The translations under genes were made by a program, and so were the position numbers. A stretch of DNA of 64,000 nt, from contig OZ024741.1 in the NCBI GenBank assembly GCA_964016885.1, positions 384,214,001 through 384,278,000 on the forward strand, in the 5' to 3' direction. Below the pieces are notes generated by a model. It saw nothing but the letters and a program-made list of their open reading frames with translations, did no database searches and had not been told where the DNA came from. Positions 11,201-64,000 of the stretch are shown piece by piece (within the stretch, counting starts at the first letter, position 1; each line of letters begins with the position of its first letter). The stretch comes from Eledone cirrhosa (Eukaryota).

Positions 11201-12003
11201 GGAAACATGGCGTCTCTGCAATGGAACACGGTTAGTGGTAAGAAACCTCCTGCCGCATGTAATTGAAGCCACAATTCTGACGGGCTGCGGCACTGGAATA
11301 AACGACTTTATACCCAGAATACCATTAACTCCATCAGATAAGAAATGCCCCTGTACTCTGCGCCGACTTCAATTCCCCGTTAAACTTTGCTTCGCGATGT
11401 CAATCAACAAGTCCCAAGGACAAACGCTAACAAAGGCAGGCCTCCATTTAGGCCAGCCGTGCTTCTCACACGGCCAATTATACGTCGAATGCTCAAGAGT
11501 CGGATGCAAGCAGAACTTAATCATACTTGCGCCCAAAGGCAGAAAAATGTGGTTTACAGACAGGTGTTATGACTCCTCTATTCAGCACCACTACAGTCTT
11601 GTCGGTCTGACATATGGTGAGTAGATGCTTTTATTGTATATTTTCAAACTTACCCGTATTTACTTACCCATGCTTATTCCCCCTCTTTCCTCCATAGGGC
11701 ATCCAATCTGTTTTCACAGAGCAAGAACCTGCGAACGTTTTACACCCCATTCCAGGACTTCCTAGCAAATTGTTACCATTGTGAGAACGATAACACGGCC
11801 CTTTTCTCGGCCACCTCACATTCAATTGTTACCCCCTTCTGAGAGTGCTGCAAAGCCCTTTGCAGGACTTTCTATCCCGTTGCAAATCTATTGGTTGGAC
11901 GGGAACTTATATCAATCTTTGCCTCAATAATCATAATTGAGTGGAATCATTAAGAGTACTTTAAAGCAATTAAACCCCGAGCAACGCCGGGCACTGCTGC
12001 TAG
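8279..12003 (+). mobile_element. Helitron (internally deleted)
   Basis: 5' TC at 8279 after host A; subterminal hairpin cccgagcaacgccggg (~11976-11991); 3' CTAG at 12000-12003 followed by host T. It splits a copy of the PLE terminal repeat (8235-8278 | 12004-12135). Confidence 0.9.
9015..11572 (+). pseudogene. Helitron Rep/Helicase pseudogene
   Basis: CCSDGKVKLP zinc motif, YNAAFQMTSF, PDLFITLTCNPKW, VEWQKRGLPHAH (HUH Rep). At ~11120 it jumps to the helicase C-terminus (LCNGTRL, RRLQFPVKLCFAMSINKSQGQT). Several stops; most of the helicase is deleted. Confidence 0.9.
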
Positions 12004-17421: not shown

Positions 17422-20400
17422 TCAGCTCAAATCTTCATTATAGACAATATTCAGGGTTGTTCCTCTGTTAGTGGTATCAATTGCAAATTTTATACCATCA
17501 GGATCGCACACTCGAGATGCAGCAACATACAGTTGCCCATTGCTGAATGCTGGATCATTCAAGTAGACACCGACTCGCTTGAAAGTCTGTCCCTGTGCCT
17601 TGTTGACAGTCATGGAGAAGGCCAAATTGACGGGAAACTGTCTCCTTTGCCAAATGAATGGCAGCAGATCTTCACTTGGTCTCAGCATGATCCTCGGAAT
17701 GAGAACCGATTCCTCTCTGCCTGGGAGTTTAGCTTCTAAAACTCTTCCGTTAATCAATCTCTCAACAATCAATCTGGTACCATTGCAAAGACCCATTTTA
17801 TTATTGATATTTCTAAGCATTATAATCGGCATACCCTTTTTCAACCTCAAAATATGTGGGGGGGGGGGGGGAATCCGGGTATTTGAAGTGAATTCAGATA
17901 CTCAGTCGGAACATCCATATTGTTCTGCTGATTAAGCTCCATTACATCCGCACTGACGGTCAACCATTCCTCTCCAGGAAACATTCCGGCTACTTGTGAA
18001 TTTATTTCATCGACCGTTGCATTCGTATGAGTTAGAATAACGCGTTCCGATATTAAGGAGATATTCTGCCAAAAAGCATTCAAATCAGGGAACACCCAGT
18101 CAATCAATGCTTGGCGGTCCAGTGGCATGACCAAATGGTCTGGGATTCTTACAGTCTGATTATCACCAACGTGTGGCAATTCATCGTGTCCCAACTGCAT
18201 CAACCATCGGCCATATGTCTCAGCCTCTTCGTTTTGCCCGAAGTCGCATATTATCGTGTAATCGCAAAACTCTGAAATGGCGCCACAACGGGGACTTTTT
18301 CAGACATGCATCGACAATTTGCGCTCTTTGAGCATTCCTAACAATTGGTAGCACCTGTCTGAAATCGACACCAAGAACGATAGTCTTGCCACTGAATGGC
18401 AGGTCACTACCGCAGATGTCTCTCAAAGTTCTGTCCAATGCCTCCAGCAAATATCTGTGCGCCATTGGAGCCTCGTCCCAAATAATCAGAGACGTATTGC
18501 GTATAAGGCCCGTGAGTTCACTTTGTCCTGTAATGTTACAGATACTCAACTCATCCGGAGCCAGTGGAACCTTGAAGCATGAGTGGAAGGTCCTTCCACC
18601 ACTCAGCAAAGTGGCAGCGATCCTACTGGTGGCCACAGGGAGAGCAATCTTCCTCTGTGCTCTGACTGCCGATAACATAGTGTTGAAATAGAATGTCTTT
18701 CCGGTGCCTCCTGGAGCATTTATGAAAGCACAAAGTTGCTCATTAGTAGAAATCGAGTGGAGAACGCCATCGACCAATTCTCTCTGAGATTGAGTCAACA
18801 TTGGCATACGTTCATCTACAATACGTTGCTGTTCCAGTGGATCAAACTGGAATAGTTCCCTCCGATCGAGGCAACCGTTTAAGCTGCAATCCCATGTTCA
18901 ATGCTAAGACACGTTGCCGCATTTCTTCATCAGGAATTAGCAAATTGAAATCTGTTAAACATTTGAAATGAACTTCAAGCAATATTGAGCAAAACAATAG
19001 CTTTCATCAAATTTTCATCATTGACCTGAAGATGATGCCTAAAATCATCAGACATAATTCCCCAATGGCGTTCAAATAACTCTCTTGGATCGGCAGGATT
19101 GCAGAATCTTAGAATCGTGACAAACAACTGCCTTATTTGAGCTGGCATCTGTGTTGTTCCTGCAGCTTCCATGGCGCTATTCCATTCAGCGTCATCCTGA
19201 AGGAGTCCCAGATGCTGACACACAGCCTGGTATGTTTCATATTCCACGCCATTGATTGTTTTCAAATCAGCGAAGCTCTGTTTACCTCTCGAAAAATCAT
19301 TATGCAACAGAATTCGGAGATAAAACACATCACCAGATGCTGGATGGACATTACAAACCCGTCCAATAGTCATGAATCTCAACTTTTGTTTTCTATCATT
19401 CAATTTCTTTCCCTTCTTATCTCACGTATAGTGCAAAGGGAAATCGCAGTAGAGTTGCCTTTGATCCGGGTTCAAAGCATGTCCCCTATTATGCTTGAAC
19501 CACTCAGTCAATTCCGTCTTAGGAGGTGGTGCGTTAGCAATTCTTTCGATTGCGATAGCAATTCTTTCTAGTGTCCTTAAAACAGACCATTTGCCTATTC
19601 TCTAAGTGAACCGTCAGTTTCTGAACGCTGGGTTTGCGTTCAATGAGATCAAAATCGAACCTTCTCCAGCAAGCTTCGCTAGATCCAATCGAGCGAACAT
19701 CCTGGAACCTGCCAACTTCATCTCCTTGGTTCGCTTCCTCATTCCTGACATTGATCATTGCCCGATCATGACCTTTGTAAACATATTTGAATAGATATTT
19801 GCAAGCTTTCACTGAGCTACAAATTTCCACATTAATATGACAACGATATTTCATAATCAAATATGGATTGTATGGCACAACCCATTGATTTGTAACCTGT
19901 CAACCGTTTACATTTTTGACCAAACCGCTATCTGCAGGCGACCGTCTTCTGTATGAAGGATGAGCATCCCCATCGTTCCAGGAAGTGTTCGTGACAAAAG
20001 ATTTCGGAAATTGCTTACTACATTGGCCATTTTTCATGCAAGGCGCTTTCCGATTTGTCACGCCGCATTGGTTGTGCACCATTAACTTTGCCACCAAGTT
20101 GCGTAGTGCCTCATTCTCCGGCAGTTCAACACACACAACGCTGTCGACATCCTCAGCGCATCTCAATTTGCAATCTCTATGTAAAATGATCAGCAAATGT
20201 GCATGTAGCAATCCTCTTTTTTGGAATTCAATTACGTATGTAAAAGCAACTATACCTCCAAAGATTCCCTCTTTTTCCATAGCATCCATTATCTTTTTCA
20301 GATATCCTTTGAATACTCTTGCCACAATATCAGGACGGTCCTTTGGCTGTTGCCCTGGCAAAGGTGCATCCTCAATATCAGTCCATTCACGATTGCATGT

Positions 20401-22020
20401 AACCGTTATAAACAAATCTGGCTTTCCAAACTTTCTGACAATAGCCATTGAATCCTGATAGCGAATGTTCATATATCTCGGGCCGCCGATGAACGACGAT
20501 GGCAAAATGATGCGTCGACCAATTCGCTTGTAATTGGCACCATCGGCTGTTATCACATCCTGTGTATTATTATACAATTCAGCTCTGATATTTTGCTGAT
20601 GTGTAGCTATATAATTTAGCCTTTCATTTTCGATCTTTGCGAATGCCATACAACAGTATTCCTGGAACAATCTGCTGGCTTGAAATAGCGCATTTCTCTG
20701 TTGATTCCTATCGTTCAAATGGGACGCGTAAAAGTCGCGAATCGAATTATTGTGTCTATTGTCGCCTCCCTGTTGATGCTGATTCTCATGATCCTCTAAA
20801 TGAACAGACATGTTCCATCCATTTTCACTTTTGGGGAATAAAAGAACATAATGCAATAGATCGTATGCCCTATTTGACTCATTGATAGTCTTGAGACCAC
20901 CATCTCTGCGATTGAGGACGATATCTCTCGATCCAGGCTTATCGTCCATCAACACAGCAACTTCACGAAATCCTTCAGGGGCATTATATCGCCGTTCGTG
21001 TCTATTCCTTGGCACTGCGTCAGCCTTAATCACCAATGTTTGCTGCTGAACATTTTGCAGTTTAGCCACCAACATGAAATCCATAACATAAGGATTACAC
21101 TGTCTAAGCCATGATTGCAAATCACGGATCAAATCACTTAACCTTTGCCGTTCAAATTCAGTTATATTTCCCGGCAACTTCATCCAACCGATCCTGATAT
21201 CCTCCTCCGATTCACTATAATCTGGATCGTTAACGTAAATTTGAGTGAATCGAGGCCTCTCTCCTGGGGTAACTTCTAAATTACCGATACAATGATACAA
21301 ACAGCCTTGAATGACTACATTCGGTTGCCATGCTCCACTCTTAAACATCTCACTAACTCTCTGCGATGCTAAAGCTAATGAATGGTTAATTTGCCGCGAA
21401 TATTTGCGCAGTAATCTATCTCGGTCTCCTTGATCACCCCACATACTTAGTATTTTAAACTCCGGTGACTCCTCATCATCCGGCATTCGCAAGGGTTCTA
21501 GTTGAACTGCTCCTTTATGACAGCACATCGTGGTCCACGTCTTTTCGTGCCTCCAAAGCAATGCTCCACAATATGGACACTCTGCTCGTCCACCAATCTC
21601 AAAATGACACGGTTGCCATGGTCCATTTTTAATATCATCCGTTCGCCTTCTAACCTCTTTACTGGAATGAGGAGCACTTTGGCGACACATTCTCTGAACT
21701 TCTGTATTGCGCTGGCGCTGTTCAGCCAGCCCCTCTTCATCCATCGCAGCACGCCGTTGCTGCTGAATTCTGGCCATCTGCTGATGATGCTCAGCCAGTT
21801 CGTCTTCAACCATCGCAGCACGCCGTCGCTACTTGGCTCCAGCGTTTCGTTGGCGTTGTTCAGCCAGCTCCTCTTCATTCATGGCGGCACGTCTTTGCCT
21901 CTGATGTTCGGCGTTCCGATGACGCTGTTCGGCCCGTTTTTCTACATTGCTGGCTGCATGCCGTCGCCGCTGTAGTTCACTGTTTGATAAAGTCTAATTG
22001 TTTTTATTATCAGTATTCAT
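17422..22020 (-). pseudogene. Helitron Rep/PIF1-helicase pseudogene
   Basis: CPYCGA..CCHKG, PDLFITVTCN, VIEFQKRGLLHAH (HUH), KYLFKYVYKGHD, APGGTGKT (Walker A), IIWDEAPM (Walker B), FSMTVNKAQGQT, GQLYVAASRV. Broken by stops and frameshifts. Confidence 0.93.
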
Positions 22021-22724: not shown

Positions 22725-25700
22725 CTACAGGATGGTATACAGAGAAGGCCCATTTACACGAGCCATTCTCGCCACTATCACCCACCTTTCATAAAACTGC
22801 CTGTGGCCAAGCACCTCTCTCTCCATTCTTATCCTTCTTCCGAAGTGATATCGGAAGAAGTAGACCAGTCTATGGCCAGAGAGGAAGTTGCCTGACCTCA
22901 GACCTTTCAATCGTGTCCACCAAACAACCTCTTTCAACATGGCTATTATGCACAGAAAAACCGCCTTTGCTTCCTTTGTGAAGAGGGGAGGCGGTTTGAT
23001 TGTCATCACGGACTCGGCGGTCAATCGAATCGGCGCCACCCGCGACAGCAGTTGTTCGGCGTAGCCCCACAGATCAGCCACGCCCGGACAGTGCACCAAT
23101 GCGTGCGCAACGGTTTCTTCGTGACGCACGCATCTAGGGCAAATCTTTTTCGAGTGATCCCTGCCCGGGCGCCCGTGTCTGTAGAGCTTTTCTCGAACGG
23201 ATAGAGCCCCCCGGTAGCACTGCCAAGCCAGTGACTTCTGGAAGTTGTCCATTGGTCCCGGGCCGAAAGTCCTACCGAATATGCTGGCCAGTTCGTCCTC
23301 TTCCATGTCCAGCGACTCTCCAAGGGTGTCACCGCCCCTGCTAGCCACCAGCCCTCTATAGAATGACGAGGTGGATTTTCCACCGATGGCCGGATCCGCT
23401 TGCCAGAGAGCCCTGAGCGCCTGGGCACACTCAGTGTGCCAGTCGCCCAGTTTTCCGGATCTTTGCTTGACCCAGGACTGCAGCTCGGTGAGCGAGACGA
23501 GTCTCGGAAAGGCTCGTTTCACGAACGGAGCCCACACCGGTTGACCAGTGAGGAATACCTGTAGGTGCCGTAGCCTTAATGCGTGCCTACGCATCATCAA
23601 CCACGGCATCCCCAGCCCTCCTTTCGAAGGTTGTTGGCAGCAGATGGATCTTCTCACCATAGGAGGGCGCTTCTTCCAAAGAAATTGAAAGAGCATGCGT
23701 TCCATGGTGGTGAGTGTTTCCTTAGGGCAAGGCACGACAGTCAGGCGGTAGTAGGTGACGGAGGCTATGTAAATGTTCGCCACCTCCGCCCGACCTTTCA
23801 GGGACAGCTTACACTTGGCCCATTTCTGGGTCAGTGCAAACACCTTGTTCGTAACCTTGCCCCAGTTCTTTTCCACCTGGAGGTCCGGTCCAAACCAGAC
23901 CCCAAGCAACTTCACCGGGCCCTCCGTCCAGTGTCCGACGACATCGTCGGGAGGCATTGGTCTGCCACTCCACGTTCCGAGTTGCAGCCCGATGGATTTT
24001 TCCCGGTTCAGTTTCGCTCCTGACAACCTTTCGTATTCCTCCAGTAAGGTACCGATCGCCTCGATCTCCGAGTCGGTCGATACCATTACTGTTACGTCAT
24101 CGGCGTAGGCCGACACCGCTTTCCTCAATCCTGGTTCCAGGGGGATACCCTGCAACAACTCCAACTTCCTCAGTAAAGGCTCGAGAGTCAATACGTACAG
24201 AAGGGAGGAGAGAGGGCACCCCTGTCGAATGGATCGTGTGATTTCGAACGGCTTCGAAAGGTAGCCGTTCACCTTGATCCTAGAACAGATGTGGTTGCGA
24301 TGTAAGGCAGTGATCCAGCCTCTGAAAACAGGACCGAACCCAGCCGCCGCTAGCACCGCATCCAGGTAACCATGGTCGACCCTATCGAACGCCTTAGACT
24401 GATCCAAGTTGATCAGGGCCCCACCAAAGCCGGGTTTGTTGCCAACCCTCTCTATGATGTATTGCATGAGGTGGAGGTTGTCGTGAATGGACCTGGATGG
24501 GATAACACATGTCTGCGCATCTCCCACCAGGCCACCCACGACAAGCGCCAACCTCTTTGCTAACACCTTGGCTAAAATCTTTAACTCTGTGTTTAGCAGG
24601 GTTATGGGCCGAAAATTATTTATACTATCCCCCTTGTTCTCATCCTTCCTCACCAGCGAGACTACGCCCTTGGCTACAGAACAAGGAATTCTCCCGTTCT
24701 GCTGCCAATTGCAGTAGACTGCTTCGAGGAGTTCGGAGAAGAAGACCGGCATTGCTAAATAAAGTTCGTAAGGTATACCATCGAGACCTGGAGATTTGCG
24801 TCTGCTGCATTGGCTCAGCGCATCCCCGATCTCATCAGCCGAGATTGGTCCCTCGCAGGACTCTGCCTCTTCGCTCGAGAGACGCGGCAAGCCGTCGAGG
24901 TATGGACTGAAATCCACGTCCCCGCCCGGACCCTCGCCTCCCCTGAACAATCGGGTAAAGTGCCTTTGAAAGGCCTCGCACATCTGCTTAGGCTCCCGGA
25001 TCACCCGTCCATCCTCGTCTTGCAAAGACCGGATGGTGGATCGATTTCCACTCTTAGCTTCTGTCACGCGGGCCCAGCCAACGGCTTTGGTCCCTTCATT
25101 ACCTAGAGCACGTATTTTACTTCGAATGACGCAGCCTTCGTGCTTTGCATCGAAAAACTGGCTCAATGCCGTCCTCGATGCCAGCACTCTGGCCACATCT
25201 TCGCTCTTGATTGCCTCTTCTAATTTACCTGTTAATTCTTTCTCGTTCCTATTCCTATCGGCAGCTAACATCTTGCTATAACTTATTGATTCTGTTCTAA
25301 TCTCTCTTTTGAGAGATGCCCACCATCGGTTGTTGACGATTGCACCCGTCAACCTCTCCTTAACTAATCTGCTAATCCGGTCTCTGTAAGCCTCTTTTGC
25401 CGGTAAAGACAAATTAAGTTTCCAGTAACCGGGACCCTGTCTATGTGTTCTCTTGAGGTTGACTACGCAGGTCACTAATTTGTGATCTGTATAGCCAACC
25501 ATTGAGTATTTCTGGACAGCTTAATATGTCCCTATCCTTACTTCTAACTAAGAATCTATCTAAGTACGATCTAGATTGACCACTATGGTTCGTCCAAGTC
25601 CAGGTTAGCACAGTTGGAAAATCTAGTTGATATCTATCGACCAAGTTAAAACGGTCGAGTAACCCCTTGAGGCTGCTACACCCCCCCCTCTATTAGGACA

Positions 25701-26165
25701 TGCTCCTGCATAGTCCCAACGTGCATCTAGGATATCATTCCAGTCCCCCGCTAGAAGCAGGGAACGCGACGTTCCCAGAAAAGTCTCCAGACGCTGGAAG
25801 AAGTCGGGTCGTTCAGCTCCGAAAGGGGAGTATACGGCGACCAGTCTCAAGGCCGCACCTCCACTACTGCCAACGTCTAGCACCAACAAACGACCTTCCG
25901 AGTCCGAGTGAACAACCTGTACGGCAAGACCCAGGTGTTTTTCCAGCAGTACGACAACCCCACCCCCACCTCCAGGTTGACAGAGAGATGCGTGTACCTC
26001 AAAGTCATCGTTGGTAGGGGCCAGCTGCCGCACGACGCTGATCCGAGTCTCACAGATAATCATTACATTTATACCACGTGACCTGAGGTCATTTAGAAGC
26101 TTTGCTTGCTTCCAAGTTGAGCCCAGGCCACGTGCATCAAACATCCTACTCTTAACACATCCATG
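22725..26165 (-). pseudogene. LINE ORF2: APE endonuclease + RT + C-terminal zinc finger (two frameshifts, near 25680 and 25500)
   Basis: ARGL..ICETR, LLAGDWN, TWTN..SYLDRFL, TDHKLV; KSPGLDGIPYE, FRPITLLNTELKILAK, LDQSKAFDRVDH, RQGCPLS, AYADDV; CPRC..ETVAHALVHC. Confidence 0.93.
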
Positions 26166-26197
26166 TGGGCGGCAAAGCCAAAGGAGAGTGTAGAGAC

Positions 26198-28107
26198 CTA
26201 CCTTTCTGCTTCCCGGGGTTCGGGTCGCACGACTGCCATGGGGTCGGGGGTGTTGGGTGAAGGGGTGTCTTGTGGTGGTGTGGGGTCGTCAGTGTGTGGT
26301 GGGGTTGGGGTGTTTGGAGTTGTGTTGGGGAGGGGAAGGGGAGGGGGAAAGCTTTTTAGGAGGACGCGGTTTATGGGTTTGACAGAGGGTGGTCCTACGT
26401 CCTCCTTAAAATCCTTTTTTAGTTTTTGGTAGAGGTTCATTGGGATCTTTATCAATTTTAAATGTGGGTAGTTTTCTGAAGAAACAAAGTTTACCCCTTC
26501 GGTTTGTACCGAAGGGTTATTGTTTATGAGTTCATTTAATTTATTATTGTTTCTGTTGATGTAAGTATAGTGTAATGTCTTTTTTTCGGATGGTGTGAGT
26601 GTTTCGAAGAGGGGAGGGGCAGGTTTGGTTTTCTTTGTTGCTGGAGGGGTGTTTTGTGTTTTATTGGATTGTGTTGACATTTGGGTAGGGGCTGTTTGGC
26701 CTTGTGTGTTTTGCACATGTTTTCTTTTTTTCCTTTTAATCTGTCTGAAGGACTCCGTTTCTTCCTCCGAATTCGTTGGGTTATCTTCAGTGTTGGAGGG
26801 AAGAGGTATGTTTGCTGGTAATGTTTCCGTGTTAGTTTTCTTTGTGGGGGAGATGGATGTCACTATGTTAGACTGTGTTGTGTGTTGTGGCTGCGGTGGT
26901 TGTGTTGTTTTATTGAGTGAGGGGTTGGGTGGGACTGTGTTTTGTTTTTGGGTAATGTGTTGTGTTTGTCTGTACTGTGGTGGTGGTGTAGTTTTACTGA
27001 GGGACGGGTTGGGTGGGACTGAATTTTGTTGTTTGTTTATCTGTTGTGGTGGTGGTGGAACTGGTGTTGGTAGCAGGGTTTTCTTCTTGTTGAGTTGGGG
27101 ACAAGCCGCCTTCAGGTGCCCTCTGCCTGCACAGATATGACAGGACGGCCTTCTCCCCTCCACGCTAATGTTTATATACCCGTGGCCCTCTAATAGGATT
27201 CTGTCGGGTATTTGGGCAATGCGTTCAGGCTTCATTTGCACTACAAGTTCTATACCTGTTCCACTGAACGCATTGCCTGTGGTTTTTCCAATGGAAATCA
27301 CGTTGTCATTCGCTGGATCAATAAAGCCAGCTATGAGCCAGCAGTAGTCCATATCTGGCATCATCGCATCCAGCCATATGCGCTGAGTTCTTTTACCCAT
27401 ATAAGATGGATAAAAGGTAAAACTTGTCGAACGAATCGGCGACAAAGCATATTCTTTTGCCGCCGATTCGTTCTTCATAATAATGGCCAGGCTTCCATAG
27501 AGCCTGTCTCTTCTTATGAAAGTGGCTTCATTAAGTACTTCTCTAAGTACCGCTTTAATTTCTGCTTGTGTTGGTTGTTGTAGCTTTTTTGAGATGTTGT
27601 TGATGGTGCGGAAAACGACCGTCCGACTTTCAATATCTTTGGTGAGTTCTTGGGGCATTTTTACTGACAAGGCTCCATTTTCCCCTTGAGTTATGAATTG
27701 TTTGGCGTTTTTTATTCTTTGTGCCACATCTGAAATATTTTCAGGTATTATGTTAAAGATTTTTTTGTTGTTTGTGCAAATGAGATGTTATTGGTGTTGA
27801 CTTTGTCGTCTGTTTTGCTTTCTGTTATGATGTTGTTGTTTTCAAATGTTATTTTTGTGTTTGTTGTTTCTTTGTTTGTGGTATTAATATTGTCATGCAA
27901 TTCTTTCATATTTTTTTTGTTGTTGGAATCAATCTCCAGATTTGTGTTTTCGTCGACATTTTTCTCCGCACATTCGTCTGTTTTTATTTTATTTTTTCTT
28001 TGCTTCTCTATGACGTTAGTTGGGAAGGAAGGGGGGACTAAAGCGTGCGAGCTTACAACTCTTACCGCTGTCCCCCCACCACTATTTTCGTTAGCTTCGT
28101 TTAACAT
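26198..28107 (-). pseudogene. LINE ORF1 gag-like nucleic-acid-binding protein (split at ~27740)
   Basis: CHICAGRGHLKAAC CCHC knuckle, Pro/Gln-rich tail, position directly upstream of ORF2. Confidence 0.8.
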
Positions 28108-52559: not shown

Positions 52560-55320
52560 AAAAGGTAAAGGAAAGAAGAGTGCTCTATGTATAGTACAGA
52601 GGTATTTAATTATGTAATAAACAACACAATATAATTATTCCATTAACAAAGGTTTCAAGAAATAAGACTATCCTTATAGAAACGTCCAGCCCGTTCATCA
52701 GATGAAATAGTTATGTTTTGATATAAGTTTTGAAATTTATATATATATATATATATATATAGAAATTACATGAATCAAAGTTCTGTTCAAACCATTTATT
52801 AGCTTACAATTGTTTCGTCCAAACCGAGGTTTGAGGTCTTTGGAGCAATTTTTCAATGATTGTTTACATACATGACCTCCTTTCCAACGCAAGAGACATA
52901 CAGATACATATGTATATATCGATGCACAGTGGGGTGACATATATTATATTATTTTAGCATGGCAATTTACATTCAAAAATTAAAATCGTATTAAAAGAAA
53001 ATTAAAACAAAATTAAGTTAAAATACAACATCGGCAGTTTACGAAGATAATGCAAGAGGATAGTTTGAAGTAGTTAGTGTATGCAATAGTTACACGTGGG
53101 GCATGCACGTGTGTCTTATTTATATAAGATTATTGTGCGGCAGGGTATTATATGCAATACAAGCACTTTAAGCGGACAATCAAGAGTATTATGGGGGTTG
53201 TATTGGTAAAGTATTTTTTATGTATGATAAAGAAGCTTGTGTGCAGAGAAATATTAAAAATGAGAAGCAAAATAATGTTATGGTTTTCGTATACACCACC
53301 ATTTTCACAATCCAGGAAACGTAATATATAGATTATATGTCCTTCACATAATCAACGATGATTCAGTATTGGATGTTTGATGTATTAGGTTAGATTATTA
53401 CAGCTTGTTGTTCTTTAATTCAGTTTTATAGAGCAGGTTGTTTTTGTTGCGAGAATTTACATCGTTTTATTTTCCGGAAGTGTGTGTATGATTAAGGGGA
53501 GTTAATGCGTGACGGGAGGTAACTAGCTGATTTCTATAACTAAATTTATTATTCCAATGTACATTAAACGGTGTCCCAATTGAGTCCCTAACATATATGG
53601 TTATAAACAGTTTCTAAATTTAAGTATCATATCTTTAAATTACAGTCTACTCTATCAAGAAGTACTAAAGGTTCCATATTAGGATGATTACCCTCTATCA
53701 TAGAGTGCCACAACTGAATATTCCATATGATGAGTCAGATCTCCAAATCAATGATCTTTGTAAATGTAGTCTACCCACAGAACCTGGCAGGGTTTTATTA
53801 GAACCACGTCTATATACAACCCCTGGTAAGCTCTGGGTCAGTGCATGTCTGATTGCATGGTAAAGTTAAATATCTCTAGGGTAGACCAGAGAGCAATTCT
53901 CACTTACAATGTCATTAATCTGTCTATCAAGTCATACATGTATGTATAACTCATATACCACTTGTACATAATTCATTGTACTCAGCATATAGGTTATATA
54001 GCTCTTTTATGTTAATAAATTAATCTTCTATTTATCCAATGATGGCACTCCATACACAGAACAATATTAGCACAAACAATTCAGTGTTTAAAGTTTACAT
54101 TATATAGTGGTGTAATGTAGTCTAAGTAATTGAAGGCAATTATACCAAAAGTAGATGTACATAGGGATATTTCTAGGGTAAAAGGTTCTAGATAGATGTC
54201 ACTAATTGTGTTAAGATAGGGTGGATCATTGAGTATGGAGTTGTGGTGTAAGATGTGCCCTTGAGGTGTGTTGCTAGAAGTGGTGATGGGTTCAAGTCTG
54301 ACATTGCTATATATTGGGTTTAAAGTTTTGGAAGGAGTGTCGAAAGCGGTGCTGGCATGACGCGAACACTTCTGATTTTTTATTAAGGAGGTTATCGTTT
54401 ACGAAGATAATAGTATGGGTCTCTAGTAGACAGATGTTACATAATTTATTAGGTGGTTTGTACGATGTCGCCTTACCTATCACTTCCCATTTAAGTATAT
54501 AAGATTTATTTTTAGTTTTTAGGTAGTGTATGTAGCTAGATAGTGAAGTGGAGTTGGCTAGACTGTGTTTTTTGAAAGAGTAGAGGTGCGAATTGTATCT
54601 GGTTTTGAAGCAGTTTGAAGTAGAGCCTATATAGGTTTCAGAAGAGTTGCTAGTTGTGACGGTGCATAAGTATATGATATCCTTGATTAAGCATTTTTTG
54701 TCTAAAGGGCAGGTTCTATTAGATCTACAGTTACAATTATTCTGGGTGTTAGTCTGCCGGTTATTATGTTGTGTAGAAGTCTGGATGGTAGCTATAGGAT
54801 TATGGTTATGGGGGTTGTCGTTCCCAGCGTTATTGCTTACACTAGTGCTATTACTATTATTACTATTGTTATCAGGGTTAGTTGATATAATGTTATTTTG
54901 AAGGTTTACCGCCTGTTGTGATTTAGTTTGTTGGAAGTAAGAATTAATTTTTCTTTTATTGCTACTAGCTATGTGGTATGCTATGTTAGGCGTAGTAGAG
55001 TAGGAGATTTTAATTGTGTTTTTGTTTAAAAGGCTATGGTACTTGTGGCCAGATGGGAAGTTTTTATCTAGGAGTGAGAAGAATACATATACAATGATAT
55101 TAAATAAATGGGAAGTATATTTATAACACCATATTTATTCTATTATATATATATTTCAAGGGTACCAAAACTTTGGTACGTTCTCATCAGATAAAATACA
55201 AAGTTTGTTTTATAAATATTCACATATCCAGGAAGAAGATCTTAACGGTTCAAGTTTTTCCTGGATAGTTAAGATCTTCTTCCTGGATATGTCAATATTT
55301 ATAAAATTAAATATCCCTTT
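52560..55320 (-). mobile_element. 5'-truncated PLE-B (Naiad-like): GIY-YIG coding ~54310-55085, with HHR-bearing repeats at both ends
   Basis: Minus translation LLDKNFPSGHKYHSLLNKNTIKI..CNCR..CPLDKKCL..DIIYLC..TYIGSTSNCFKTRYNSH..CNICLLE..CQH. HHR motifs at 55136-55198 and 52636-52709. The extent of the 3' region is approximate. Confidence 0.75.
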
Positions 55321-55322
55321 TG

Positions 55323-55397
<75 letters not shown>

Positions 55398-55737
55398 ATA
55401 TACATACATGCACACATAAAATCACATGTGCGCATCTGTACGGACATCCATATATACACTCATACATATATACACATACATCCACACACACATATATATA
55501 TAAGAGATGGCAACATGAATGGACCTGTTATTTTTATCTAAAGACATGTTTTCCAATTCCACTCCGCCCTGCCCTTCAATATATCTAATTTCTCATTCTT
55601 TTTTCTGATGAAGGACTAGTGTCTGAAACCTTAAAACACTCTTCCTGCTATTTCAAGTGTTAACCTAATATATTTCTTCCATATACTGTACCAATTGTGT
55701 TGTTATTTCTGTTTACCTTTTACATATATATATATAC

Positions 55738-55775
<38 letters not shown>

Positions 55776-57231
55776 GCAAAAAGTTTTATTTAAAATGTTG
55801 GGTTACAACGAGTAAATATTTTATAACTGATATAAAAGCACTCAACAAGTTTTGGAGTATTTTACGATATTAAACAAATGGAAATTACATTTATAAAACC
55901 ATATTTATCTCATTATATATATTTCAGGGATATCATATTAAAAATATGGTATGCCCTCTTCAGACAAAATACAATATATAGACAGTTTTATAAATAAATT
56001 TGACATACCTTAGAGTTTACAACTTCCATTTAAAAAGTTGTTACGGTAGTGAAAATGTTAAGGACGGTTAGAAAGAAAGACGGAGAGAAAAGGAAAAAAA
56101 AGGAAAAAGAAAAAGAAGGAGAAAAGAAAAAGAAAGAGCGGAAGGTGAAGAAGATGAAGAAATGTATGTAAAGAGAAAACCACCAAATGAGAGATCTATG
56201 AGGGAAGGGGGTACTGTAATTATTCATTTGTTTATTTATTTATTTAGTATTAAGGATACGGGAAGAAATAAAAACAAAAATAAATAAGGAGAGGTAGATC
56301 GAGTAATATCTATCATACGAGGTGGGAGAGATAGGGGAGGGGTGATATACAGGAGATAGAGTTAAAACGGCCGATATAAGAGTAGAGGGAGGAGGAGAGG
56401 AGATATACTTAGAAACAAAAATGATAGTTTTAAAATATTATGTTTCATCAGTCTATCAATTCCTATGAATTATAATGTAAACATCAATATCCATGAATGA
56501 GACACATATCAATAATGTGTGAAAAAATAGTGACTATATGTTTAGTCTAAAAATCCATAGGTTTATAATCAAAATCTGAGATAAAACCTCAAAAAATACT
56601 GGAATACATAGGTACACATGTATCCTCATGAAAAAAGAGAAAAGAGAAAGAAAAAGAGAAGGTTATCTCAAACTGACATTATAGACACATGTGAGTTTAC
56701 ATGATCAGCTCTGTAAATTTTTATTTCACATGGAAATCTTCATTGCGCCAAACAGATTTTACCATACACATAAGTGTACATACATATATATATATACATA
56801 AAATATACATTATTAATAATAATAATATTCTTGCCCTTTCTTACATGATTATCGTACAAGCATAGAATAGAACAGATATCAATATATTAAAATATTAAAA
56901 ACGCCAAGAATATTTTCCTCCCCAGAATATCTAGGGCCGTAATAAAAACACAGTGTGCCCAGCATATCAATCAATCCCTCCAATTTATTTGACAATATTG
57001 CCAAGTTTATTAGAAGCAATCAGAGCCAAAAGCAAACAAAACCAAAATTATTCACCAAACCTATTTAGCAGAAATCATTAAAAAAACTTTAGGATGCTCG
57101 GTTGTTCTACAGATGCTCTTATATTTATTCTAGAAGTTTATCTAGCTTAAAAATGTTATTCAATAGATTTGGATCATCACCGTTTTAAGGTAGTTTAATT
57201 ACATTATTAATTATATATTCATTAAGAAGGT

Positions 57232-58308
57232 TTAAAGAACTGAAGGAATCGAAAGATCCACCGCCAAGTTTTCTAAAATAATTAAAAGTCTTAAGTAAAC
57301 ACACCACACTCCAAACCCATATTTATACCCAAAAGTTGAGTTCAATCTATGTCTGCAGCAACCGAATAAATTGGTCCGTAAATCAAGGGAACCTTTAGAT
57401 TTTAGTATAAAGAATATCTCCTCTGCGCAGAGGTCACATGTCTCAGAGGAGGAATTAAAAGGAATCCCTCCTGAGACCATATTCCAAACCGTCGAATATC
57501 CAACGTTATCATGTCTAAGTTGCCAGAGCAAGCCTGATAGCGATGTTGAAGATTTTTTGTTTGGATCTGTGAAAGAATTCCCGTGATTACTACAGCGAAG
57601 TTTAAATTCTGTCGAGGCGGAACCAACATAATTAAAAGAATTCAAGTCAGTTTTAACATTACAGTTGTATACTATATTTCTAACTAAGCAATTGTCATCC
57701 AACGGGCATTTAGATCTATCTCTACAGTCACAGTTGTTTACCCGAATATTGCCTATGCCATTATCGGTATTTTGGCCAGGTTTTAGATCTCTATTATTTA
57801 TTCTATTAATATCCTGTGCTAAATTTTTGGTGGACGAGTAGGTTAATTTTATAGCATGTCTATTGAAAACTGAGCGACACTTATGTGCTCTAGGGAATCG
57901 CCCGCCAAGAGCATTAAAAAATAGTTTAGCGATGTGGGTTTTAATGTTTAGTGAGAAAGGGGGGGGGGGCAAACCAAATTATGTTTCTAGTTCTATTCCT
58001 TTTCTGGTTTTTGGAATTATTGTAATTCTTTCTATTCTAGTTGTTAAAGTTGTTACCGTAATTAAAATTGTTGTTATTTTGATTAGTTTGTCTATTATTA
58101 TCGATGTACGTAATTTTATCACTATATCCTGCTCTAGCTAACGCTTCATTGTAATAGTGGGCTTTTTGGTCGAAAATATTTTTATTAGATGAGATTCTAG
58201 AGATACGTTTTTGAACAGAGTTCACTATAGTATTTTTAACAGATCTGGGGTGGTTGGAGTTAAAGTTGACATAATTCAAGTTTTCATTTAACTTGTGAAA
58301 TGGATAGT
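57232..58308 (-). pseudogene. Inverted partial copy of the PLE-A ORF (thumb + GIY-YIG)
   Basis: Reverse complement of 59700-60782. Confidence 0.9.
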
Positions 58309-58478
58309 TTTATATATGTAATTTCCATTTGTTTAATATCGTAAAATACTCCAAAACCTGTTGAGTGCTTTTATATCAGTTATAAAATATTTACTCGTTG
58401 TAACCCAACATTTTAAATAAAACTTTTGCATATTTTCTGCTCCAATACTGTTGAGCGCTTTATATTATAACTGAAAAA

Positions 58479-60782
58479 ATGGAATTCTTTAAGATCTCTT
58501 CTTCTCTAAAAGACATACCTCTACCTAGAAACAAAGACTTTATTAAACAATTAATAGATAAATCAGACTCTTTTATAAGGAGAATCAGGTGGCGTGCATT
58601 CTACTTTGATAAATCTAATACTAATGATAATGTCTCAGACTTAGATAAAGTTTTCAAATCTAAAAAAAATCCACCCCCCAACAAACTTTTAATTGATTTT
58701 GAAAACGATATAATCTCTATCATACAAGGAGTCAAATTCAAGAGAAACTTCAAAGGCCAGGAATATCTGAAAAGCATTAAGGATAATATTGTGAGCTTAG
58801 AGAGAACAGAGAAGATCTTGGTGAAATCGGACAAAACCAACAACCTCTATGGACTGGATAAAGACATGTATAATGGCCTCATACTGAAAGAACTAAGGAA
58901 AAAGTACAAGGTAGCATATAAGGCTGAACTTGAGAAAATGAACGTTGAGGCATCTTGTATAACGCATGAGTTGGAAATTGAGAACAAAACACAACCTTTC
59001 TTGCCCAGGAAACCCAAGATCAATATGAAAGATCACAAAAGAAATTTTGAAAACGACTTGCCAGTCAGATTGATCGCACCATCAAAATCTGACCTGGGTA
59101 AACTTAGCAAAAACATTCTAGACAGGGTGATACAGCAAATTAAGAACTTGAATTGTTCACCTAACTTAAGCTTGTGGAAGGGAACTGGAGAGGTTATTGA
59201 GTGGTTTAAAGAAATTAAATATAACAATAATAATAAATTTATTCAACTAGATATTGCTAACTACTATTCATCTATTACCCCTAACCTACTAAATAAGGCA
59301 CTAAATTATGCATTCAAACATACAGACCTAACTAGCAATGAAATGCACATTATACTATCGGCAAGAAAAACATTGATAGAATTTAATAACCAACTATGAC
59401 TAGGGCAGATAGGGATAGCAATTTTGACATTACTATGGGATCATCTGACTCAGCTCAGGTAACAGACCTTGTGGGCCTATTTATAATTAATTCGCTGCAT
59501 AGGAAAATACCCGGTGCTACCGGAGGATTATATCGGGATGACATGCTTTTACTTATTGAAAATAATAACTCTGAACTAAATAGAAAAAGAAAACAAATTA
59601 TACAATTTTTTAATTACCTTAATCTAAAAATAGAAATTGAGAATAACCATAGAATAGTCAATTTCCTAGATGTAACATTAAATCTCAACACATGTCTTCA
59701 CTATCCATTTCACAAGTTAAATGAAAACTTGAATTATGTCAACTTTAACTCCAACCACCCCAGATCTGTTAAAAATACTATAGTGAACTCTGTTCAAAAA
59801 CGTATCTCTAGAATCTCATCTAATAAAAATATTTTCGACCAAAAAGCCCACTATTACAATGAAGCGTTAGCTAGAGCAGGATATAGTGATAAAATTACGT
59901 ACATCGATAATAATAGACAAACTAACCAAAATAACAACAATTTTAATTACGGTAACAACTTTAACAACTATAATAGAAAGAATTACAATAATTCCAAAAA
60001 CCAGAAAAGGAATAGAACTAGAAACATAATTTGGTTTGCCCCCCCCCCCCCCCCCCTTCTCACTAAACATTAAAACCCACATCGCTAAACTATTTTTTAA
60101 TGCTCTTGGCGGGCGATTCCCTAGAGCACATAAGTGTCGCTCAGTTTTCAATAGACATGCTATAAAATTAACCTACTCGTCCACCAAAAATTTAGCACAG
60201 GATATTAATAGAATAAATAATAGAGATCTAAAACCTGGCCAAAATACCGATAATGGCATAGGCAATATTCGGGTAAACAACTCTGACTGTAGAGATAGAT
60301 CTAAATGCCCGTTGGATGACAATTGCTTAGTTAGAAATATAGTATACAACTGTAATGTTAAAACTGACTTGAATTCTTTTAATTATGTTGGTTCCGCCTC
60401 GACAGAATTTAAACTTCGCTGTAGTAATCACGGGAATTCTTTCACAGATCCAAACAAAAAATCTTCAACATCGCTATCAGGCTTGCTCTGGCAACTTAGA
60501 CATGATAACGTTGGATATTCGACGGTTTGGAATATGGTCTCAGGAGGGATTCCTTTTAATTCCTCCTCTGAGACATGTGACCTCTGCGCAGAGGAGATAT
60601 TCTTTATACTAAAATCTAAAGGTTCCCTTGATTTACGGACCAATTTATTCGGTTGCTGCAGACATAGATTGAACTCAACTTTTGGGTATAAATATGGGTT
60701 TGGAGTGTGGTGTGTTTACTTAAGACTTTTAATTATTTTAGAAAACTTGGCGGTGGATCTTTCGATTCCTTCAGTTCTTTAA
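58479..60782 (+). pseudogene. PLE-A RT + GIY-YIG polyprotein (frameshifts at ~59397 and at the poly-C ~60040)
   Basis: SLKDIPLP, FIRRIRWRA, KSDKTNNLY, KDHK..RLIAPSKS, LDIANYYSSI, FDITMGS, GLYRDD, NFLDVTLNL, SNHP, RNIIWF, CPLDDNCL, IVYNC..YVG, CDLC..E, CRH. Confidence 0.92.
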
Positions 60783-62042
60783 ACCTTCTTCATGAATATA
60801 TAATTAATAATGTAATTAAACTACCTTAAAACGGTGATGATCCAAATCTATTGAATAACATTTTTAAGCTAGATAAACTTCTAGAATAAATATAAGAGCA
60901 TCTGTAGAACAACCGAGCATCCTAAAGTTTTTTTAATGATTTCTGCTAAATAGGTTTGGTGAATAATTTTGGTTTTGTTTGCTTTTGGCTCTGATTGCTT
61001 CTAATAAACTTGGCAATATTGTCAAATAAATTGGAGGGATTGATTGATATGCTGGGCACACTGTGTTTTTATTACGGCCCTAGATATTCTGGGGAGGAAA
61101 ATATTCTTGGCGTTTTTAATATTTTAATATATTGATATCTGTTCTATTCTATGCTTGTACGATAATCATGTAAGAAAGGGCAAGAATATTATTATTATTA
61201 ATAATGTATATTTTATGTATATATATATATGTATGTACACTTATGTGTATGGTAAAATCTGTTTGGCGCAATGAAGATTTCCATGTGAAATAAAAATTTA
61301 CAGAGCTGATCATGTAAACTCACATGTGTCTATAATGTCAGTTTGAGATAACCTTCTCTTTTTCTTTCTCTTTTCTCTTTTTTCATGAGGATACATGTGT
61401 ACCTATGTATTCCAGTATTTTTTGAGGTTTTATCTCAGATTTTGATTATAAACCTATGGATTTTTAGACTAAACATATAGTCACTATTTTTTCACACATT
61501 ATTGATATGTGTCTCATTCATGGATATTGATGTTTACATTATAATTCATAGGAATTGATAGACTGATGAAACATAATATTTTAAAACTATCATTTTTGTT
61601 TCTAAGTATATCTCCTCTCCTCCTCCCTCTACTCTTATATCGGCCGTTTTAACTCTATCTCCTGTATATCACCCCTCCTCTATCTCTCCCACCTCGTATG
61701 ATAGATATTACTCAATCTACCTCTCCTTATTTATTTTTGTTTTTATTTCTTCCCGTATCCTTAATACTAAATAAATAAATAAACAAATGAATAATTACAG
61801 TACCCCCTTCCCTCATAGATCTCTCATTTGGTGGTTTTCTCTTTACATACATTTCTTCATCTTCTTCACCTTCCGCTCTTTCTTTTTCTTTTCTCCTTCT
61901 TTTTCTTTTTCCTTTTTTTTCCTTTTCTCTCCGTCTTTCTTTCTAACCGTCCTTAACATTTTCACTACCGTAACAACTTTTTAAATGGAAGTTGTAAACT
62001 CTAAGGTATGTCAAATTTATTTATAAAACTGTCTATATATTG

Positions 62043-62108
62043 TATTTTGTCTGAAGAGGGCATACCATATTTTTAATATGATATCCCTGAAATATATATA
62101 ATGAGATA
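62043..62108 (+). ncRNA. Type I HHR with (TA)n stem III (mirror copy 55906-55971, minus)
   Basis: tattttgt-CUGAAGA-ggg..ccct-GAAA-tatata-UA-atgagata. Confidence 0.75.
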
Positions 62109-62239
62109 AATATGGTTTTATAAATGTAATTTCCATTTGTTTAATATCGTAAAATACTCCAAAACTTGTTGAGTGCTTTTATATCAGTTATAAAATATTT
62201 ACTCGTTGTAACCCAACATTTTAAATAAAACTTTTTGCA

Positions 62240-62296
<57 letters not shown>

Positions 62297-62622
62297 GTAA
62301 AAGGTAAACAGAAATAACAACACAATTGGTACAGTATATGGAAGAAATATATTAGGTTAACACTTGAAATAGCAGGAAGAGTGTTTTAAGGTTTCAGACA
62401 CTAGTCCTTCATCAGAAAAAAGAATGAGAAATTAGATATATTGAAGGGCAGGGCGGAGTGGAATTGGAAAACATGTCTTTAGATAAAAATAACAGGTCCA
62501 TTCATGTTGCCATCTCTTATATATATATGTGTGTGTGGATGTATGTGTATATATGTATGAGTGTATATATGGATGTCCGTACAGATGCGCACATGTGATT
62601 TTATGTGTGCATGTATGTATAT

Positions 62623-62695
<73 letters not shown>

Positions 62696-62819
62696 CAAAA
62701 GGGATATTTAATTTTATAAATATTGACATATCCAGGAAGAAGATCTTAACTATCCAGGAAAAACTTGAACCGTTAAGATCTTCTTCCTGGATATGTGAAT
62801 ATTTATAAAACAAACTTTG

Positions 62820-62882
62820 TATTTTATCTGATGAGAACGTACCAAAGTTTTGGTACCCTTGAAATATATATATAATAGAATA
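62820..62882 (+). ncRNA. Type I HHR with (TA)n stem III (mirror copy 55136-55198, minus)
   Basis: tattttat-CUGAUGA-gaac gtaccaaa gt tttggtac cctt-GAAA-tatatata-UA-atagaata. Confidence 0.78.
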
Positions 62883-63230
62883 AATATGGTGTTATAAATA
62901 TACTTCCCATTTATTTAATATCATTGTATATGTATTCTTCTCACTCCTAGATAAAAACTTCCCATCTGGCCACAAGTACCATAGCCTTTTAAACAAAAAC
63001 ACAATTAAAATCCCCTACTCTACTACGCCTAACATAGCATACCACATAGCTAGTAGCAATAAAAGAAAAATTAATTCTTACTTCCAACAAACTAAATCAC
63101 AACAGGCGGTAAACCTTCAAAATAACATTATATCAACTAACCCTGATAACAATAGTAATAATAGTAATAGCACTAGTGTAAGCAATAACGCTGGGAACGA
63201 CAACCCCCATAACCATAATCCTATAGCTAC

Positions 63231-64000
63231 CATTTTACTAGCTTCAAGAACGCGTCTACACGACGTGAGAAAGAATCCCAAAAGGCGGAGGGGGAGATAG
63301 TCACGCGATATAACGGTCGAGAAACAGAGCTAAGCCTCTTATAACTCTGAAGAAAATACCACGGAGGCGGAGGGGGTATTTATATCGAAGCCGTTGTGTT
63401 GTTGGTGGTGCGAGTACGGAGTTAATTATTATAAAATAACGCGTTCTTGAAGCTAGTAAAATGAGGTATCCTCTTGATAAGTCGGCAGACCTCGCAAGGA
63501 CTCTATATCTTTATGATGTATTGTTTTTGTTTATGCCACGAAACTACGTAGTCGAGGAATCTAGGAGCAGTTTAGGTATGATACATTTTATTACTAATTA
63601 TATCTAAATGTTTCTTCTCTCTTCATAATGTATTTTTAACTCTGATACTGGTTCAGTCTAATTCAACCGGATTGGTCTGTCCCAGTCATTCATTGAGCAA
63701 CATCGGTGAGGTTGGCACCATTAACTCACGGTTGGGTGTGGATGCATTCATGTATATGTGTGTGTCCGCATGTATCTGTGTGTTTCTAAATATATTGTTA
63801 ATAACTCCCTCTGGTCGAGTAATCTTTGAAGTGTGGTGACTGCTGGAAAGCTTCCATTACTCATACTTCTCGCCTCCTTCATCACCTCTTCTACGGCTTC
63901 GATATAAATACCCCCTCCGCCTCCGTGGTATTTTCTTCGGGGTTATAAGAGGCTTAGCTCTGTTTCTCGACCGTTATATCGCGTGACTATCTCCCCCTCT
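63231..64000 (+). mobile_element. Second insertion of the 591-bp retrozyme-like family (inverted 5' piece 63231-63395, then a unit from 63439); HHR at 63469-63558
   Basis: Slightly diverged reverse complement of the 36803 array unit. The U3-A8 core is conserved. Confidence 0.85.

Follow-up and report, generated by a model that had tools for sequence, protein, structure and literature searches.

Clustered A-to-G changes in genomic copies of a Penelope-like element of Eledone cirrhosa point to probable ADAR editing of its sense RNA before insertion

The window analyzed here, a stretch of 64,000 nucleotides of the Eledone cirrhosa genome in whose coordinates all positions are given, contains a full-length copy of a Penelope-like element, PLE-A, built of a 131-bp terminal repeat, a frame for a reverse transcriptase (RT) and a GIY-YIG endonuclease, a 3′ UTR and a tail reaching up to (TA)n (Table 1). 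Its segment 58304-58433 is repeated at 62112-62242, the pseudo-LTR or partial tandem arrangement of Penelope-like elements. Copies terminate at 62151 or 62242, and the tail of ~90 bp is longer than the 30–40 bp described for such elements. In the siblings L040 (749 aa) and L253 (748 aa) the frame is unbroken, a single ORF running from the RT into a C-terminal GIY-YIG endonuclease as in EN+ Penelope-like elements, and the YRDD and endonuclease motifs are legible in sibling L034. Two things break the frame of the window copy, the loss of one base near 59398 and the length of a C run. The PLE-A protein has 37 homologues at 32–42% identity, with RVT_1 in one of them; searches of Pfam with the family protein, of PDB and of Rfam returned no direct match to PLE-A. 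The CCHH motif is a feature of EN+ Penelope-like elements, and the endonuclease residues R, H, E and N are named catalytic, in the accessible text of PMC8557442; at the codons checked, the PLE-A family has R, H, C, C, E, N, C and H. The hammerhead-like region near the 3′ end gave no Rfam hammerhead match, and its predicted fold is no better than that of shuffled sequences (z −0.55). Elsewhere in the window, the end of PLE-B, a separate Penelope-like family, forms a near-perfect 30-bp hairpin at an inverted terminal-repeat junction (55210-55304, 62714-62808), with Rfam microRNA matches below the cut-off. A 591-bp unit is arranged head to tail in about three repeats (36803-38484, 63231-64000), and a related copy of it abuts the right end of the palindrome described below and runs on past the window. 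Judged by their translations, five other stretches (5345-6426, 8688-11624, 17422-21828, 22725-27787 and 39802-41037) presumably contain further endonuclease frames of the Penelope-like type, parts of Helitron-like Rep/helicase genes and a LINE-like element whose RT frame is 931 aa long.

Table 1 Features of PLE-A and its surroundings in the window
Feature	Position	Strand	Basis or remark
PLE-B endonuclease region, separate Penelope-like family	54307..55134	-	GIY-YIG E 0.007, below cut-off
Flank of ~1 kb, duplicated inverted at 62243-63233	54785..55771	-	palindrome beyond the element
Inverted 5′-truncated arm, equals 59700-62242, same 68 A>G	55772..58308	-	self-comparison
PLE-A, full-length Penelope-like element copy	58304..62242	+	intact sibling frames, homologues
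Reverse-transcriptase coding part	58479..60073	+	unedited; frame broken
Second G-rich patch of the preliminary description	58740..59210	+	native family sequence, 0/188 A changed
A-rich Asn linker and C18 run (60039-60056)	59900..60098	+	unedited, marks sharp 5′ editing edge
Candidate antisense poly(A) signal ATTAAA	60096..60101	-	followed by GU-rich stretch and G-run on the minus strand
Hyper-edited tract, 55 A>G, GIY-YIG endonuclease region and 3′ UTR start	60109..60774	+	sibling comparison
Conserved endonuclease Asn to Asp	60630..60632	+	altered in 10/12 edited copies covering the site
Family stop codon to TGG (Trp)	60708..60710	+	identical change in 8/13 edited copies
Sparser second A>G cluster, 3′ UTR	61266..61523	+	9/81 A in 61260-61524; sharing with siblings
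Hammerhead-like core motif CTGAAGA...GAAA at 62051, terminal repeat region	62036..62116	+	motif scan

Changes were called against the commonest letter per column among sibling copies. By this yardstick, 55 of the 260 A in 60109-60774 are replaced by G in the window copy and none of the 209 T by C, the sole other change being a G>C at 60283 that is present in the right arm of the palindrome only. Among 28 siblings, A>G is found at 47 of 7261 A (0.6%) and at no more than 5 sites in any copy; against this background the excess in the tract has a binomial probability of ~1e-64. Over 58.5-62.25 kb, A>G accounts for 68 of the 85 differences between the window copy and its siblings. The preliminary description had placed an endonuclease region recoded by clustered A>G changes at 60095..60720, and the D>G, K>G, T>A, Y>C, H>R, I>V, N>S and N>D replacements that it cited are present among the recoded codons. 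The core of that interval stands, but its end does not, as the tract reaches 60774 and the sparser 3′ UTR cluster lies beyond. Neither of the two objections that the description had foreseen applies: the siblings lack the G letters in the endonuclease region, so these letters are not the consensus of the family or of a subfamily, and sense-strand A>G dominates. Isolated A>G changes are also seen in the stem of the hammerhead-like motif, at 62105 in the window and at the equivalents of 62101 and 62109 in L223, and may reflect local editing of a short hairpin.

Upstream of the tract, A>G affects 0 of 711 A in 58304-60098, including 0 of 86 in the A-rich segment 59900-60098. The patch at 58740-59210, previously taken for a second altered region, is therefore native: the cited NLYGLDKD and KMNVEASC are also found in the unedited sibling L034, and one A>G separates the majorities of the old and young subfamilies over this stretch. 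The misreading arose because PLE-B, another family, had served as the reference. The residues CDLCAEE, likewise listed as a deviation, occur in L034 as well, and the Tyr of YVG belongs to the family sequence. In the endonuclease region 33 of 198 codons encode an altered residue, among them an Asn that, judged by its position, is probably the catalytic N. Loss of the stop at 60708 extends the window frame to 60782. The idea that editing recodes without closing the ORF overlooks the removal of the natural stop and the indels, unrelated to editing, that break the copy.

The survey of the assembly (3.0 Gb), with natural edited stretches as queries and one degenerate pattern, uncovered 14 further hyper-edited PLE-A loci (L221-L232, L243, L244). 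The 15 edited loci lie on 7 contigs, each with its own flanks and its own edit set, and over 60090-60800 their private changes comprise 1091 A>G among 1172, with 14 T>C and 4 G>A, so that clusters of the APOBEC type (G>A) are absent. For the same interval, 60 sampled copies showed 30 A>G and 25 T>C among 229 changes, with at most 4 A>G in any copy. These 60 were the first among the site matches listed, all on contig C1, and five loci already known, one of them edited, had been left out, which gives an edited share of 1/65 there. Of 12 edited loci already known, the degenerate pattern recovered 6, and it matched 8 loci overall. This corresponds to ~16 edited copies among 1005 site matches, or ~1.5%, a lower bound given that both search methods favor heavy editing, and leaves an estimated ~98.5% of the ~1000 PLE-A copies unedited. 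In a tree computed without A columns (midpoint-rooted without an outgroup, L232 being too short to place), edited copies are interspersed with unedited ones across at least five clades. The overlap of edit sets with the window copy is near chance for most edited copies. Across 99 pairs of edited copies the top overlap is 79% of the smaller set, above uniform chance; the six most-overlapping pairs fall in different clades, and we therefore read high overlap as site preference. Descent of the edited copies from one edited master was rejected on the basis of this tree and the differing edit sets, and no daughter of the window copy was found among its 40 best matches. Hyper-editing of this Penelope family is real and family-wide, extending to at least five subfamilies.

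Some loci were less clear-cut. L084/L233 (G000:C1:76079001-76089000), in which A>G makes up 8 of 13 changes over the equivalent of 60735-62064, is possibly lightly edited and was excluded from every count as too weak. In L231, the A>G changes near 59025-59200 are mostly common to unedited kin, and a few further ones lie near 58888-58921. Four sequencing runs compared with one unedited copy yielded multi-copy contigs, whose strand bias was not usable and speaks neither for nor against editing.

Depletion of G upstream of the edited A is given as a mark of ADAR in the available portions of PMC2873906 and PMC5625713. At 13 loci taken together, 1104 of 2820 A are edited, and the edited share by 5′ neighbor is 0.48 for T, 0.44 for A, 0.29 for C and 0.15 for G; the depletion of 5′ G (54/370 versus 1050/2450, Fisher p 5e-28) bears out the neighbor preference that the preliminary description had proposed to examine. 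By 3′ neighbor the shares at the same loci are 0.51 for G, 0.42 for A, 0.34 for T and 0.33 for C (p 4e-6). The window copy alone shows a modest depletion of 5′ G (2/34 versus 52/224, p 0.02) and no significant 3′-G preference. Silent and replacement sites are edited alike (228/616 versus 763/1918). The host is predicted to encode a catalytic ADAR: its genome has A_deamin genes with PF02137 matches above the cut-off, and one ADAR2 exon shares 95% identity with Octopus vulgaris ADAR2 and matches human ADAR2 structures with E 3e-102. Three PLE-A loci, L287-L289 (G000:C1:146.70-146.78 Mb), lie within 80 kb of one another and ~250 kb from an A_deamin locus. The A>G clusters on one strand, as expected of ADAR, the neighbor pattern, the host ADAR genes and the 15 loci together give good support to the earlier proposal that the RNA of the element was hyper-edited before insertion.

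The edited tracts share a 5′ edge. Eight of 13 edited copies reach upstream of it; in six of these editing starts at 60099-60133, and in the remaining two at 59632 and ~60404. In L244 it starts at ~60065. The six spanning copies have 7 of 513 A edited in 59900-60098 versus 84 of 247 in 60099-60200, and the 3′ edges of editing vary widely, from ~60800 to 62100. At the 5′ edge lies the minus-strand ATTAAA of Table 1. Copies of the old subfamily, compared with a matched yardstick, have their first edit 3 nt past this hexamer, with editing throughout their own 3′ UTR, and the edge is thus common to young and old subfamilies. The hexamer is one of 20 antisense ATTAAA/AATAAA hexamers in the element, so that a single one near the edge counts for little. 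Only 1 of 89 A is edited in 60057-60098, and the A residues of 60087-60092 almost never are, which counts against a duplex ending 10–30 nt past the signal; the edge lies slightly nearer ATTAAA than cleavage would predict. A hot spot of truncation was not apparent, as one of 69 sampled arms ends within 60040-60140, and an edge that is shared without such a pile-up of arm ends indicates a feature of the element. Selection on the RT was rejected as the cause of the edge: upstream of it, neither the variable Asn linker nor silent sites are edited, and the endonuclease is heavily recoded.

No long inverted repeat was found within a single PLE-A element, and the shared edge suggests that the sense RNA had an antisense duplex partner. 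We slightly favor transcription of this partner from the 3′ part of the element itself, with RNAs often ending near 60090. Such an RNA would, with about the same likelihood, form a duplex over the endonuclease region and the 3′ UTR and spare the RT region. In L221 editing ends at 61996, and none of the 45 A residues further on is edited; this end lies just inside a TATA-like stretch (window 62030-62045), and such a stretch could start antisense transcription. The partner may instead, though with lower probability, have come from a head-to-head donor hairpin or from antisense of a truncated copy within a host transcript or small-RNA locus. An inverted arm lies next to the 5′ end in 33 of 60 sampled loci, and an unedited copy, L272 (G000:C1:103361200-103368200), spans the equivalent of 60083-62151, almost exactly the edited interval. 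L272 is a candidate antisense source; ~20 copies like it are expected among ~1000, and chance alone is expected to give such ends. Against these sources, the same edge recurs in edited copies of subfamilies whose 3′ UTRs are ~72–78% identical to the young one, and editing of each subfamily's own UTR would require several donors with one shared end. Moreover, arm ends are scattered, and no edited copy has a T>C arm.

Both strands of an RNA duplex should undergo editing. The early searches for edited loci could detect A>G copies only, and this bias was corrected by the use of mirror patterns at one 32-nt site, where the sense-edited pattern gave 9 matches at 8 loci and the antisense-edited pattern none (p 0.008). 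A second antisense pattern, one without a sense control of its own, also gave 0 edited matches. With both duplex strands editable and only sense edits found, the strand copied in the edited subset was very probably the edited sense RNA. The accessible text of PMC3846280 leaves the template strand of Penelope open and favors self-priming on an antisense template, and that of PMC11167929 describes copying in vitro of an RNA spanning the pLTR-ORF junction, the later steps being unvalidated. A sense template is in itself unsurprising given PMC11167929; what is added here is a record in vivo.

The inverted arms were informative on a second point. The palindrome of the window (54785-58308 versus 59700-63233, 99.35% identity, 9 substitutions) has no continuation past 63233 or outside the window. 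Its inverted arm includes the edited tract at ~57240-57905 and carries all 68 of the 68 A>G changes of 59700-62242, which confirms the earlier observation that the inverted copy has the same changes. Edits common to arm and main copy number 98/98 in L225, 5/5 in L223 and 10/12 in L232, and no T>C cluster was found in the inverted arms of edited copies. An RNA hairpin would be edited in its two arms separately and on opposite strands, so the arms must have been copied from one edited molecule. We infer that inverted arms arise by fold-back of antisense cDNA, in that the new cDNA would quite likely fold back and copy itself. The arm in the window itself is the least secure example, since the flank is duplicated too and a later DNA event may be responsible. 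For this flank-including palindrome, fold-back synthesis into target DNA, later duplication and assembly error are all possible. Both window arms keep the full tail, and in several siblings (L223, L225) one arm only does so.

Taken with the 15 edited insertions, the shared 5′ edge and the identical edits of the inverted arms, the changes, their strand and their neighbor pattern make it likely, at roughly nine in ten by our estimate, that the 55 A>G are ADAR A-to-I edits of a sense RNA that was paired with antisense RNA and then fixed via reverse transcription. Within such a duplex, ADAR would almost certainly edit 20–53% of the A residues. Alteration of the conserved Asn in 10 of 12 copies suggests that the edited endonuclease is dead, and the edited RNA would then probably have been moved by protein from unedited RNA or by protein made before editing. 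As a fuller account, we tentatively propose that the element itself gives rise to an antisense RNA whose 3′ end is built in, that ADAR hyper-edits and loosens the duplex, and that the sense RNA is retrotransposed in trans, a recurring germline route that would supply ~1–2% of insertions and leave barcodes of a sense template and of ends made by cDNA fold-back.

We regard editing as most probably a by-product, one that results in dead copies, and not as the main brake on the element. That it is an effective, selected defense against retroelements, with the edited copies as rare escapers, appears unlikely to us. The loss of conserved endonuclease residues, including the Asn, and the lack of a window-copy daughter among the 40 best matches would both fit a defense. 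Moreover, the accessible text of PMC9068888 proposes that repeat editing inhibits cephalopod retrotransposons, and that of PMC5224506 reports restriction of L1 by ADAR1 in cells; according to the latter, however, this restriction does not need editing and L1 RNA carries no edits. In PLE-A, editing is missing from ~98.5% of copies and from the RT region, every edited RNA seen did insert, and the equal editing of silent and replacement sites shows the edits to be unselected. Destroyed RNAs leave no insertions, and to that extent defense is possible.

Reverse transcription made error-prone by skewed dNTP pools, or a mutator acting on DNA, would be a very improbable source of the changes. A-to-G hypermutation in retroviral replication, which Kim et al. 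are said to have reported in 1996, offers a parallel, but the strong 5′-G depletion and 3′-G preference at 13 loci, and a sequence-fixed edge that recurs across subfamilies and adjoins a very A-rich unedited stretch, speak against such sources, and editing of the cDNA strand would appear as T>C, which is absent. Least probable of all is an artefact, either through edited cDNA that entered the assembly or through a subfamily consensus rich in G. Although the long palindrome of the window could be an assembly error, its arms differ by 9 substitutions, the 15 loci on 7 contigs have their own flanks and differing edit sets, older edited copies show ordinary divergence like their unedited neighbors, and the G letters are missing from the siblings.

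RNA editing usually leaves no lasting trace, and here it is recorded in inherited DNA, at a measurable rate and in an animal group known for editing. If ADAR did edit the RNA before insertion, the enzyme must act on retroelement transcripts in the germline or early embryo. The changes serve as natural barcodes for two questions about Penelope elements, the template strand and the origin of inverted ends, and a screen that compares A>G with T>C clusters in each family is applicable to any genome as a record of old double-stranded RNA and of template polarity.

Among known systems, A-to-G hypermutated retroviral genomes likewise carry A>G clusters through reverse transcription. Those genomes belong to infectious retroviruses in culture; the edited PLE-A copies, in contrast, make up a recurrent fraction of an endogenous family in the germline and have a fixed edge. 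PLE-A resembles the EN+ Penelope-like elements described in the available text of PMC3846280, PMC8557442 and PMC11167929 in its RT and C-terminal GIY-YIG frame, terminal repeat and tail, and also in 5′ truncation, head-to-head inverted arms, (TA)n targets and the Asn-rich linker. It goes beyond them in that its edits tag the sense strand in vivo, and both arms have them in common. Hyper-edited Penelope RNA in a lizard and heavy editing in octopus have already been published (PMC5625713, PMC9068888). As far as the accessible parts of these two papers extend, ADAR hyper-edited repeat RNA shares with PLE-A the dense A>G clusters and the upstream-G depletion, with Penelope RNA as a heavy substrate and octopus as a heavy editor. 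The edits they describe are differences between RNA and genome, whereas those of PLE-A are found in genomic copies, which they would have reached through reverse transcription into the germline. Among the open-access papers listed by literature searches, no title or opening of an abstract mentions ADAR-edited retroelement copies fixed in a genome; the supplements of PMC4866542 and PMC5625713 may bear on this point. The APOBEC-edited genomic retroelements of PMC4866542 are alike in being fixed hypermutated copies with changes on one strand, an enzyme motif and damage to the frame. In the available text of that paper, they result from G>A editing of DNA in vertebrate LTR elements, with invertebrates as the negative control. 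PLE-A differs in its A>G changes, in an enzyme acting at the RNA stage, and in being a Penelope-like element of an invertebrate, and its edited copies are thus an RNA-stage, invertebrate counterpart to the APOBEC-scarred retroelements.
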